Origin: a phage
Strand: one strand, 5' to 3'
Length of the DNA stretch: 64,000 bases
Sequence record: PZ179880.1
In this document: one piece after another, positions 34,204 to 37,757 of the stretch
Layout of the letters: every line of letters begins with the position of its first letter
Numbering within the stretch: position 1 is the first letter of the stretch
Translations under genes and position numbers: made by a program
Notes under the pieces: model-generated
Told to the model about the DNA's origin: nothing
Seen by the model: the letters and a program-made list of their open reading frames with translations, nothing else
Databases searched by the model: none

Positions 34204-34785
34204 CTAACCGAGCTTTTTAGTTAATTCATTCCAATGTTTTCTACACAAAGAAACATAAATTTCATCACCAATACAGATTTGATTACCTTCTTTAACTGGT
34301 GTTCCATCTTCCATTAATCGAGCTGTCATAATCGCTTTTTTACCGCAATGACAAACTGCCTTTAGTTCAATAAGTTTATCTGCAATCGCCAAAAGTTCTT
34401 TAGAACCTTCAAATAATTTTCCGGCGAAATCAGTCCTTAGACCATAAGCCATAACAGGAACATTATATGTATCAACAATTCGACTTAATTGATGCACCTG
34501 TTCAGTTTTTAAAAACTGGGCTTCATCTACAAATACACAATGAATATCTTTTTGTGCTTCAGCCCATTTATAGAACTCAAAAATATCCATATCATCCGTA
34601 ATAATATTCGCTTCCTGCTTAATTCCAATGCGAGAAACGACTTCACAGACAGAATCGCGAGTATCAATAGCAGGCTTAAGAACTAATACACCCATTCCGC
34701 GTTCTTTATAATTATGTGCAGCAGTCAAAAGAGAAGCAGATTTTCCAGCATTCATTGCTGCGTAAGTAAAAATTAAACTCGCCAT
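34204..34785 (-). CDS. tk: Thymidine kinase
   Basis: 193 aa; P-loop AAMNAGKS; C-terminal Zn cysteines. Confidence 0.93.
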   Translation of the reverse strand: MASLIFTYAAMNAGKSASLLTAAHNYKERGMGVLVLKPAIDTRDSVCEVVSRIGIKQEANIITDDMDIFEFYKWAEAQKDIHCVFVDEAQFLKTEQVHQLSRIVDTYNVPVMAYGLRTDFAGKLFEGSKELLAIADKLIELKAVCHCGKKAIMTARLMEDGTPVKEGNQICIGDEIYVSLCRKHWNELTKKLG

Positions 34786-34794
34786 ATCACCTTC

Positions 34795-34980
34795 TTAAAG
34801 CATATTCACATAAGCTATTAATTCGTTTTCTTTCTTATCAAACCGATCAGCAAATTCTTCTTGCTGTTCGGGAGATAGCGGGCCGTATTCATCATAAAAG
34901 GTGTTTGCTTCTGTATGCTCATCTAGAAGTTCATGGATAAGCTCAAACAATTTATCTTTTTGTTCTTTACTCAGACTCAT
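34795..34980 (-). CDS. Small acidic helical protein
   Basis: 61 aa; MSLSKEQKDKLFELIHELL. Confidence 0.45.
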   Translation of the reverse strand: MSLSKEQKDKLFELIHELLDEHTEANTFYDEYGPLSPEQQEEFADRFDKKENELIAYVNML

Positions 34981-35146
34981 ATATTAATTTCCAGGAGTTT
35001 TAAAATAATTCGCTTTTGCTTAAATATTTCCATAGTTAAATGACCAGTATCTTTTTGACCGATTCCAATGGCAAAACCTTTATTGACAGCGAGTTCAATT
35101 AAATTATCAAGCTCACGTAACACTTCATACTGTAACTCAAAACTAT

Positions 35147-35359
35147 TCATTTCGGTTTACCTTCTTTAACGAAATCTGGATAAGGATAAAATCCCGAATA
35201 AAATCCTTCACCTTTATGATTGATGCATCCTTTATTAGAACAATAACACCAATAATCGAAATCACAAGCCATTTCATCGTTGCATAAAGCAAAAACAACT
35301 GGCCATTTACACTTTTCACAATGGGCATTTTTAAGAATACTAGTTTGGCTCATAACCAT
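35147..35359 (-). CDS. Small cysteine-rich (likely Zn-binding) protein
   Basis: 70 aa with at least 8 Cys (CEKCKW...CNDEMACDFDYWCYCSNKGC). Confidence 0.5.
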   Translation of the reverse strand: MVMSQTSILKNAHCEKCKWPVVFALCNDEMACDFDYWCYCSNKGCINHKGEGFYSGFYPYPDFVKEGKPK

Positions 35360-35577
35360 GTAACCTTTAAGCAGTATTCTTCTACATGCTGTTTACGACC
35401 TTTCTTATCAATAAAGGTATATTCAACGAATGTTCCAATGTAGTCTTTATCTACATCATGCGGACTATTAATTGGACATTTAGTACGGCAAATGCGTTCC
35501 CATTGACGAATAATTACTGCCTTATTCTTTGGGTCATATGGATGTGGATAATGTATATTCATAATAACGGTTCCCAA
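35350..35577 (-). CDS. Hypothetical protein
   Basis: 75 aa ORF. Confidence 0.45.
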   Translation of the reverse strand: MGTVIMNIHYPHPYDPKNKAVIIRQWERICRTKCPINSPHDVDKDYIGTFVEYTFIDKKGRKQHVEEYCLKVTWL

Positions 35578-36026
35578 TCAACAATCACAATTTCTAATTT
35601 AGAGGAATATGTATCTAAAATCCCCTCAATAATATCCCAGTTCCCTTTACCTATGCCTGCACCAATCCTAGGCATATAGATTGTAGGTTTAATCAGTTTA
35701 TTTTCACCAAACTCATTTAATTCTAACATACAATTCATTAAAGCGGAATACTCAAAATTTGGCCCTGGTTGAAATTGAGTATAAAGGTTGAAGCAATACG
35801 CTTTATGAGTCCTAAAGTATTTTTCATAGACTGAGTAAGAACCGAGTTTAGTTACATCACCCCATTCAGTCTGTAATTTATCAGCTTCCAAAATTTTAGG
35901 GAAAGCTTTGGTTAATTGACCCGCTACGCCTGAACCCATAGTATGAAAACAATTGCATCCATGCGCAATATTTTTACCTTCAGCGAAAAGGGCGACAATA
36001 TCGCCCTTGATATATTTTACAATCAT
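35559..36026 (-). CDS. Macrodomain protein (TARG1/DarG-like predicted ADP-ribosyl hydrolase)
   Basis: 155 aa; GD-x11-AHGCNC-x3-MGSGVAGQL resembles the TARG1/DarG macrodomain signature. Confidence 0.6.
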   Translation of the reverse strand: MIVKYIKGDIVALFAEGKNIAHGCNCFHTMGSGVAGQLTKAFPKILEADKLQTEWGDVTKLGSYSVYEKYFRTHKAYCFNLYTQFQPGPNFEYSALMNCMLELNEFGENKLIKPTIYMPRIGAGIGKGNWDIIEGILDTYSSKLEIVIVDWEPLL

Positions 36027-36370
36027 CTAGTACTCAATCCTCGATTATAAGAATCTACCAAACGGTCAACCATTGAATGACAAGCGGCTTTATCTTTCTC
36101 CTCCGCAACTGAACATTCTAAGGTATTCCACTTTTTAGCATATCGTTTTAATAATGTATCGTTTTTGTATCTGCTTGATTTATCTCTTTCTCCGTCTTTA
36201 TATGCATATATTAATTTCTGCGCAAATTCAGCTTGGCATGCTTTATTTTTCCCACAATAATCTGCCGCAGTGCGATTTACATATTCTCTAATTTCAGTAT
36301 ATGATGTATCTGCTGACGCAGAAGCAGAAAATGAAATTAATCCTATACATAAAACCAAAATTTTAGTCAT
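36023..36370 (-). CDS. Secreted protein with cleavable signal peptide
   Basis: 115 aa; N-terminal MTKILVLCIGLISFSASASA followed by a polar domain with 4 Cys. Confidence 0.55.
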   Translation of the reverse strand: MTKILVLCIGLISFSASASADTSYTEIREYVNRTAADYCGKNKACQAEFAQKLIYAYKDGERDKSSRYKNDTLLKRYAKKWNTLECSVAEEKDKAACHSMVDRLVDSYNRGLSTR

Positions 36371-36908
36371 TTACTATTTCCAAAAGTTTATTATTTTTAA
36401 GGTAATTAGCCTTTTCTAGGACTTCAGAAGCATATTTAGAACCAGCTTTAACATTCCATCCCGAATTATAAGAGGATATTGCTTTTCTTATATCGCCCTT
36501 ATGTATATTTAACCAATAAGAAAGTTCAATGTACGCCCAGGAAGCTGAATTGGATCGTTTATTCAACATTCTTTTTATTTCAGCATCGGTCATATTATAA
36601 CCAAGTTCCTTAACTCTTGCTCGCATAGTAGGCAAATAATTTTGGAACATTCCATAAGCGTGATGCTTTGGTTTAGATTTTAAATTAACTCCGCCAGAGC
36701 TTTCTTGCCATAAAATAGCAGCCATTATATGACCTAATCCGCTCTTGTGGATATTTTTGTGTGTTTTATATTTTCCATCCTTAGAAAATTGTTCCCCGAA
36801 TTGATACGCGTAACGCATGTTATCGAGTTGGACATTACTGAAAGTATGCTCGGAGCTATGTGCCATCATTGAAATGGCCAATAGACCAGCGAGTAGTGCT
36901 TTTCTCAT
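36363..36908 (-). CDS. Periplasmic lytic-transglycosylase-like protein (SLT-like)
   Basis: 181 aa; signal peptide MRKALLAGLLAISMMAHS; motif WQESSGG ... YGMFQ. Confidence 0.5.
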   Translation of the reverse strand: MRKALLAGLLAISMMAHSSEHTFSNVQLDNMRYAYQFGEQFSKDGKYKTHKNIHKSGLGHIMAAILWQESSGGVNLKSKPKHHAYGMFQNYLPTMRARVKELGYNMTDAEIKRMLNKRSNSASWAYIELSYWLNIHKGDIRKAISSYNSGWNVKAGSKYASEVLEKANYLKNNKLLEIVND

Positions 36909-36915
36909 GCTTACC

Positions 36916-37377
36916 TCATTGAGTTTTAATTACTGCTTTAGAAGCCTTTCCTGGTAAACGACGACTGTTGATAATTGCCATCCTACATTGAAGTGACGGG
37001 TCTTTGAACTTCGCGTTAGGTTTACAAACTGTAAATCCAAGCCAAAGATTTCCATCTGTGATTTCTAAACGTCCAGGACGATATTCAACCCCATCAATAA
37101 AATCCTCGTCAATGTCAGGACGCGGAGGCATACTCAGGAATTCATTAACTTCTAAAACATGGTCTTTTATTTTATGGAATAATTCAAAAACATATGTCTC
37201 ATCAATCTCCCGTTGAATTGCACGATCAAGAAGATGTTGAGAATATTTTAGATGAAACGATGAGACTCCTGCTGCTTTTGATGCCTCACGAATCTCATTG
37301 TTAATTTGACGAAACTCCGACTCAAAGTGACGACGAAGCTTATTTCGACGGATAAAAACTTCTGTATTGATAGTCAT
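36916..37377 (-). CDS. regB: Endoribonuclease RegB
   Basis: 153 aa, matches T4 RegB; early promoter upstream. Confidence 0.9.
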   Translation of the reverse strand: MTINTEVFIRRNKLRRHFESEFRQINNEIREASKAAGVSSFHLKYSQHLLDRAIQREIDETYVFELFHKIKDHVLEVNEFLSMPPRPDIDEDFIDGVEYRPGRLEITDGNLWLGFTVCKPNAKFKDPSLQCRMAIINSRRLPGKASKAVIKTQ

Positions 37378-37404
37378 GTTATTCTCCTCTTAACTGATAG
37401 AAAA

Positions 37405-37434
37405 ATTATACCACAGTCAAGAGGAAAAGTAAAC
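37405..37434 (-). promoter_or_regulatory. Early sigma70-type promoter upstream of regB
   Basis: Minus strand GTTTAC - 18 bp - TGG TATAAT (perfect extended -10). Confidence 0.65.
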
Positions 37435-37436
37435 AG

Positions 37437-37757
37437 TTATTCTTTAAATCTAATCAATTTATTCATAGACTTTGAAACTTCTGCACGAACCTCATGTAGA
37501 TTTTTGAGCTGTTCAAGACGCTGTTCATAGTAAGCAATTTCATCTTCTTCGAGACAGTCCTGTGAATCTTCTTTAAGATAACGTGCATAGTCCTGGAAAG
37601 CGTTACGAACTACTTCCTGGAAGTCATCAAGACTTTGAATTTTCTTAGGAGCAACAGATACACGACGAGGGGCAGTATAATACTCATAACCAAACCCTGC
37701 GCTTAATTGAGCCATTAGTATTTTTCCTCTGGCTGGAACACAGCACGACAAGCCCAC
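37437..37757 (-). CDS. Hypothetical protein
   Basis: 106 aa ORF. Confidence 0.45.

Follow-up and report, generated by a model that had tools for sequence, protein, structure and literature searches.

DNA ADP-ribosylation is an established bacterial weapon against phages, and phages answer it with eraser enzymes. The minus strand of the window (the whole stretch of phage DNA analysed, 64,000 nucleotides, record PZ179880.1) encodes, at 35559..36026, a protein of 155 aa that consists of a single macrodomain. The question raised by this locus is whether the protein is such an eraser and, if so, with which type of active site it works.

The tk.4 gene and its surroundings

The gene was assigned as tk.4 (adfM) from the list of open reading frames, identity to T4 Tk.4, a match to the Pfam Macro family and a structure model. 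A sequence-only reading of the DNA had pointed to the pattern GD-x11-AHGCNC-x3-MGSGVAGQL in this 155 aa frame, and the translation contains it exactly (G8-D9, 11 residues, AHGCNC at 21–26, 3 residues, MGSGVAGQL at 30–38). At the protein level, identity to ORF 60.5 of T4 is 100%; this ORF, from the 1986 sequence X04567, appears as tk.4 in the reference genome AF158101 (60922..61389). The DNA flanking tk.4 in the window is ∼98% identical to T4, and the gene order vs / tk.4 / tk.3 is the same in the window and in the T4 annotation, so that by sequence and synteny the two genes are orthologues. A 2-kb query from the window found matches in 663 phage records (99.8% for the top one), and the window belongs to a T4-like Tequatrovirus. 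Since 34786..35348 is dissimilar to T4 tk.1–tk.2, the DNA derives from a close relative of T4 and not from T4 itself.

Sequence reading and the ORF coordinates place the start codon of tk.4 in an ATGA overlap with the stop codon of vs (36023..36026, minus strand). Likewise, the stop codon of tk.4 overlaps the start of tk.3 (DUF7202, 70 aa) in a second ATGA (35559..35562, minus strand), a layout also found in the T4 annotation. Judged by these stop/start overlaps only, the genes regB, vs.1, vs, tk.4 and tk.3 may be co-transcribed and perhaps translationally coupled, and tk.4 would probably share an upstream promoter with regB, vs.1 and vs. A scan of 34700..37700 for sigma-70 promoters and terminators gave no excess over shuffled controls (10 promoter-like sites, with 12.6 expected). 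A perfect TATAAT occurs within the 3′ end of vs (36044..36049, minus strand), 18 nt ahead of the tk.4 start codon, and X04567 annotates a potential promoter there. This hexamer was rejected as a standard sigma-70 promoter, the nearest −35 hexamer (TTGACC) having a spacing of only 14 nt, and no MotA box was found at the proper distance from it.

The upstream gene vs (36023..36370, minus strand) is annotated as ‘valyl-tRNA synthetase modifier’ and its product gave no Pfam match. The N-terminus of Vs is a signal-peptide-like segment (MTKILVLCIGLISFSASASA), an odd start for a supposed modifier of a cytoplasmic synthetase. Of the T4 genes, vs showed the strongest conditional requirement in minimal medium according to the HIDEN-SEQ preprint (bioRxiv 10.1101/2025.11.20.689424). 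The product of vs.1 (36363..36908, minus strand) combines a signal-like N-terminus with an SLT lytic transglycosylase domain. Downstream of tk.3, a three-gene cassette (34786..35348) takes the place of T4 tk.1–tk.2, which it does not detectably resemble at the DNA level. The exchange runs between the start codon of tk and the stop codon of tk.3, and the flanks on both sides are ∼98% identical to T4. The ORFs of the cassette, all on the minus strand (34795..34980, 34977..35150 and 35147..35359), encode proteins of 61, 57 and 70 aa: the first is a DUF7438 protein, the second gave no Pfam match, and the third, which has 7 cysteines, belongs to PF23895 (‘Phage zinc binding domain’).

Relatives of Tk.4 were detected by tblastn in 2,751 of 50,697 phage records, spread over many genera, and an exhaustive profile search returned 1,238 clusters at E ≤ 1e-30 and 8,958 at E ≤ 1e-10. 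A search for bacterial, non-phage homologues accompanied by DarT led back to phages: both candidates that bear a bacterial MAG label reside on contigs of T4-like phages, which carry Rnl1, PNKP, a T4 spanin and dCMP deaminase and from which DarT is absent. The context of a 246-aa homologue was uninformative. In the cases examined, the members of the Tk.4 clade are orphan phage genes. On a contig of a distant T4-like phage (GCA_051648945.1, L004 41..2397), the homologue directly follows a DUF4326 gene, an Rnl1-type RNA ligase and a 131-aa ORF; it lies near PNKP, inside an RNA-repair cluster and away from vs and tk.

Fold, family and active site

The sequence-only reading had proposed an HMM search against Pfam Macro as a check, and the search bore it out: PF01661 matches residues 22–132 of Tk.4 at 27.7 bits, above the curated gathering cut-off of 22. 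The predicted structure (pLDDT 95.9) has the three-layer α/β/α fold with a six-stranded sheet that characterizes macrodomains, and the GxG loop 1 and the Gly-rich diphosphate loop 2 are both conserved in the clade. Tk.4 is a member of the macrodomain superfamily, with ADP-ribose binding itself as a prediction. Its nearest structural and sequence neighbours belong to the ALC1/TARG1-like class, well apart from the MacroD, viral and PARG classes. A profile of 45 sequences run against the solved structures of the PDB matched BT1257 (1e-17), TARG1 (2.5e-14), Poa1p (3.7e-14), SCO6735 (7e-14) and the DarG proteins of M. tuberculosis (1.9e-13) and T. aquaticus (7e-11), with the other macrodomain classes at 2e-3 or weaker.

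The A1pp (macro) domain in tk.4 orthologues was reported in 2006 (PMC1524935), and several GenBank records already name the gene product ‘macro domain protein’ or ‘ADP-ribose binding module protein’. PHROG 335, which matches Tk.4 at 1e-65, is labelled ‘phosphatase’, a label widespread in phage records of the family; it is probably a carry-over of the old A1pp domain name and misleading as to function. One phage record names a small gene next to a tk.4 homologue ‘ABC transporter ATP-binding protein’.

Residue equivalences were derived from the profile-to-PDB alignment and a MAFFT cross-family alignment. The TARG1 sequence used was 100% identical to PDB 2LGR, the DarG, BT1257 and SCO6735 sequences were taken from the PDB alignments, and the SCO6735 numbering reproduces V25, N27, Q85, G87 and K89 of its paper. 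A single-sequence phmmer alignment to BT1257 was discarded, as it misplaced the Gln motif and both the profile alignment and MAFFT gave another register. Conservation was assessed in 119 retrieved homologues and in a set of 140 representatives, 139 of them additional and each from its own 50%-identity cluster (259 in total).

By translation check, G8-D9 (36000..36005, minus strand) occupies the position of TARG1 G19-D20 and aligns with the TARG1 ‘KGD’, a position that presumably has a role in adenine binding; G8 is found in 97% of homologues and residue 9 is D or N in ∼99%. Loop 1 (M30-GSGVAGQL-38; 35913..35939, minus strand) matches the Pfam Macro profile as the GxG loop lining the ADP-ribose cleft, its G33 and A35 being ∼99–100% conserved. 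The diphosphate-binding loop 2 (P119-RIGAGIGKG-128; 35643..35672, minus strand) aligns with the TARG1 ‘PRIGCGLD’ and has invariant P119, I121, G122 and G124.

The active site itself centres on two motifs. In the first, H22-G-C-N25-C26 (35949..35963, minus strand), HGCNC aligns with ‘HVCND’ of SCO6735, ‘HICND’ of BT1257 and ‘NTVN’ of DarG, and both alignment and conservation make Asn25 the equivalent of SCO6735 Asn27; the same residue aligns with TARG1 Ser35. In the second, N80-L-Y82-T83-Q84 (35775..35789, minus strand), alignments and conservation place Gln84 at the position of TARG1 K84, DarG K80 and SCO6735 Gln85. Both alignments have Gln in this column in the Tk.4 clade (YTQ), SCO6735 and BT1257 (IGQ), and Lys in TARG1 (ITK84), both DarGs (PTK80) and PhiKZ gp104 (PTK). 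Every clade member (259/259) carries Gln84 at the column of the TARG1/DarG catalytic Lys. Among the 119 homologues, Q84 and Y82 are kept in all, and N25, C26 and D49 in 118; G23, N25, C26, D49, Y82, Q84, G122 and G124 are 100% conserved in the 139 cluster representatives. At the position of TARG1 Asp125, Tk.4 has Gly126 and the clade as a whole has Ala or Gly.

Three further residues stand out. Asp49 (35880..35882, minus strand), in the helix 44–52, is a clade-specific invariant acidic residue (118/119 and 140/140 sequences), and Cys26 (35949..35951, minus strand) and Tyr82 (35781..35783, minus strand) are clade-invariant. Across the 259 homologues these three are as invariant as Gln84 and Asn25, and they have no counterparts in SCO6735, DarG or TARG1.

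The description of the protein as a TARG1/DarG-like macrodomain stands for the fold and, from the order of the profile matches, for the ALC1/TARG1-like class, but fails for the Lys-type active site (Gln84, Gly126). Taken literally, the absence of catalytic residues, which the sequence-only reading had named as counting against itself, is what was found for the TARG1/DarG Lys (Gln84) and for TARG1 Asp125 (Gly126). On these alignments Tk.4 is not a DarG/TARG1-type enzyme, the catalytic Lys being replaced by Gln84. However, the missing Lys is no argument against activity, because the SCO6735 sub-branch, which uses the same Gln, actively hydrolyses thymidine-ADPr on DNA (PMC9411070). Although the catalytic residues of TARG1/DarG are missing from SCO6735, the enzyme removes thymidine-linked ADP-ribose from DNA; its Q85A and Q85E mutants are inactive and N27S nearly so, Gln85 positioning the distal ribose, Asn27 positioning the Gln, and a backbone-held water acting as the catalyst (PMC9411070). 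Its activity has been confirmed on synthetic substrates (PMC12879935). What the present analysis adds is that the aligned Gln84/Asn25 pair of Tk.4 matches the Gln85/Asn27 arrangement of SCO6735.

Protection against DarTG2

The anti-DarTG2 role of tk.4 is already known. In the HIDEN-SEQ preprint, a T4 transposon library was screened on a DarTG2 host with tk.4 as the single significant match, and a clean tk.4 knockout was sensitised to DarTG2, whereupon the gene was renamed adfM (anti-DarT factor Macrodomain); tk.4 was dispensable on plain K-12 and needed only with DarTG2 (bioRxiv 10.1101/2025.11.20.689424). The same preprint, which is not peer reviewed, noted the similarity of Tk.4 to M. tuberculosis DarG and, on enzymatic removal of ADP-ribose from DNA, said no more than that it ‘seems likely’ (bioRxiv 10.1101/2025.11.20.689424). 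The protein has been detected in T2-infected cells (bioRxiv 10.64898/2026.06.19.733364). The need for tk.4 in DarTG2 resistance comes from the preprint genetics; the present work contributes the identity of the gene, its fold, the pattern of its active site and the conservation across the clade. Together, these genetics, the identity of the gene and the SCO6735-like active site support the suggestion, made from the sequence alone, of a phage eraser directed against host DarT-type DNA ADP-ribosylation.

We infer that protection is enzymatic de-ADP-ribosylation of DNA and, with it, a catalytic mechanism. With a probability of roughly 0.8, Tk.4 is a Gln-type DNA thymidine-ADP-ribosyl glycohydrolase that reverses the damage done by DarT2 to replicating phage DNA. 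Once host DarTG2 is triggered, DarT2 would put ADP-ribose on thymidine in single-stranded DNA and phage replication would stall; the macrodomain cleft of Tk.4 would hold the ADP-ribose while the thymine–ribose bond is hydrolysed, and the restored DNA would allow T4 to replicate. The chemistry would most likely be of the SCO6735 type and not of the DarG/TARG1 lysine type, with Gln84, held by Asn25, positioning the distal ribose and with a water molecule, not a Lys side chain, effecting catalysis.

A more speculative extension, which we consider possible but hold only tentatively, is that the clade forms a third mechanistic subtype of the ALC1-like class, combining a short DarG-like loop with Gln84/Asn25 and with Asp49, Cys26 and Tyr82. 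Asp49 might then take the acid/base role of the DarG Lys, and the substrates might be ADP-ribosylated bases or nucleic acids more broadly than DarT2 products, including the hydroxymethyl-cytosine context of T4 DNA. Such a broader range, if true, could explain the large size of the clade in phages.

Several points count against a DNA thymidine-ADP-ribosyl glycohydrolase. Tk.4 has neither the DarG/TARG1 Lys nor the Lys89-bearing mobile loop that supports DNA activity in SCO6735 (PMC9411070), the clade is very large (1,238 clusters at E ≤ 1e-30), phage macrodomains have been argued from comparative genomics to act mostly on small ADPr-derived molecules (PMC9503650), and the N-terminal half of Tk.4 resembles the Appr-1″-p phosphatase Poa1p (HSCNC motif). 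The last two of these points, and the generic labels of the family, favour the view that the main substrate is a small ADP-ribose derivative (ADP-ribose-1″-phosphate, O-acetyl-ADP-ribose or an immune signalling nucleotide), with a secondary or indirect DarTG2 phenotype. We regard this as improbable. The labels are generic carry-overs of the ‘A1pp’ name, and of the residues mutated in the Poa1p structures (H23 and S30) the first has a well conserved equivalent (H22, 95%) while that of Ser30, T29, is only ∼50% conserved; moreover, Poa1p has Ser and not Gln at position 84. The DarTG2-specific loss of tk.4 mutants points instead to thymidine-ADPr DNA, as does the invariant Gln/Asn pair shared with the DNA-active SCO6735 (PMC9411070).

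Protection might also occur without catalysis, Tk.4 inhibiting DarT2 by binding it in the manner of an antitoxin or shielding the ADP-ribosylated DNA. Such a role has a precedent in AdfB of ICP1, which binds DarT directly (PMC11481870), and would fit both the loss of the canonical catalytic Lys and the occurrence of a Gln at the Gln84 position in ALC1, a binding-only macrodomain. The Gln is, however, catalytically essential in SCO6735 (PMC9411070), and Tk.4 has no DarG-like C-terminal DarT-binding domain. The strict conservation of N25, Q84, G122 and G124 in 259 diverse sequences also fits an enzyme, and a purely binding role appears very unlikely.

T4 encodes three ADP-ribosyltransferases of its own, Alt, ModA and ModB, which form arginine-linked ADPr, a linkage cleaved by ARH-type enzymes and not known to be cleaved by macrodomains. 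We give least credence to Tk.4 erasing or tuning their modifications on host proteins or RNA–protein conjugates, a use also considered in the sequence-only reading and unsupported here: the arginine linkage lies outside macrodomain chemistry as generally known, tk.4 showed no linkage to alt or to mod genes, and it is dispensable on plain K-12 and required only with DarTG2. In favour of such a use are the very presence of these three enzymes and the ability of SCO6735 and TARG1 to take off Glu-linked protein ADPr as well (PMC9411070).

Comparison with known systems

The DarG of DarTG2 (PDB 5M31/5M3E/5M3I/7OMU) has the catalytic Lys80 in ‘FPTK’, a C-terminal DarT-binding domain and an adjacent darT, all of which Tk.4 lacks. 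The NCBIfam DarG equivalog NF048014 gave Tk.4 only 30.3 bits against a cut-off of 250, matching model positions 2–146 of 338, and the PADLOC DarG model likewise matched through its macrodomain half only. The C-terminal DarT-binding domain is absent from the 155 aa of Tk.4, and darT is not among its neighbours (vs and tk.3).

A second phage protein, PhiKZ gp104, has independently been named ‘AdfM’ and takes DarT2-made ADP-ribose off an oligonucleotide in vitro (Cell Rep 2026, PMC13309987). Like T4 Tk.4 it is an orphan phage macrodomain with an anti-DarTG2 role; unlike Tk.4 it is a close relative of DarG (E 9e-25 to M. tuberculosis DarG) that keeps the ‘FPTK’ Lys, and it is imported into the phage nucleus. 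The two were rejected as orthologues, their BLASTP alignment spanning only 23 residues (E 0.005). As judged from their sequences, the name AdfM covers two independently recruited macrodomain lineages, a Gln-type one (T4) and a Lys-type, DarG-like one (PhiKZ), and this collision of names between two groups makes annotation errors likely. Because the two active sites differ (Gln and Lys, respectively), the residues to mutate in T4 AdfM are Gln84 and Asn25, and also Asp49, Cys26 and Tyr82, and a DarG-like lysine should not be sought. The remaining interest in Tk.4 is mechanistic, namely its Gln-type active site and the invariant Asp49, Cys26 and Tyr82.

Other phage counter-defences against DarT toxins are AdfN, AdfA and AdfB. 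AdfN of T4 (gene 30.3, NADAR) is an orphan, antitoxin-like eraser of the guanine-ADPr made by DarT1 and acts against DarTG1 (PMC11825919); its NADAR fold is unrelated to the Tk.4 macrodomain. Together with PhiKZ gp104 it sets a precedent for the eraser role proposed for Tk.4, likewise an orphan. AdfA and AdfB are non-enzymatic, AdfB binding DarT and not being a hydrolase (PMC11481870).

In human TARG1/OARD1 (PDB 4J5S), the dyad Lys84/Asp125 corresponds to Gln84/Gly126 of Tk.4, and Ser35 to Asn25. With the Gln-type ALC1-like proteins SCO6735 (PDB 5E3B) and Bt_1257 (2FG1/2AFC), Tk.4 has in common the Gln at the Lys position and the Asn, at an identity of only about 21–29%. It differs from them in lacking their 5-residue longer mobile loop with Lys89, the Tk.4 loop being short as in DarG and TARG1, and in its clade-specific invariant Asp49, Cys26 and Tyr82. 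Furthermore, SCO6735 and Bt_1257 are chromosomal and DNA-damage-induced, whereas Tk.4 is phage-borne.
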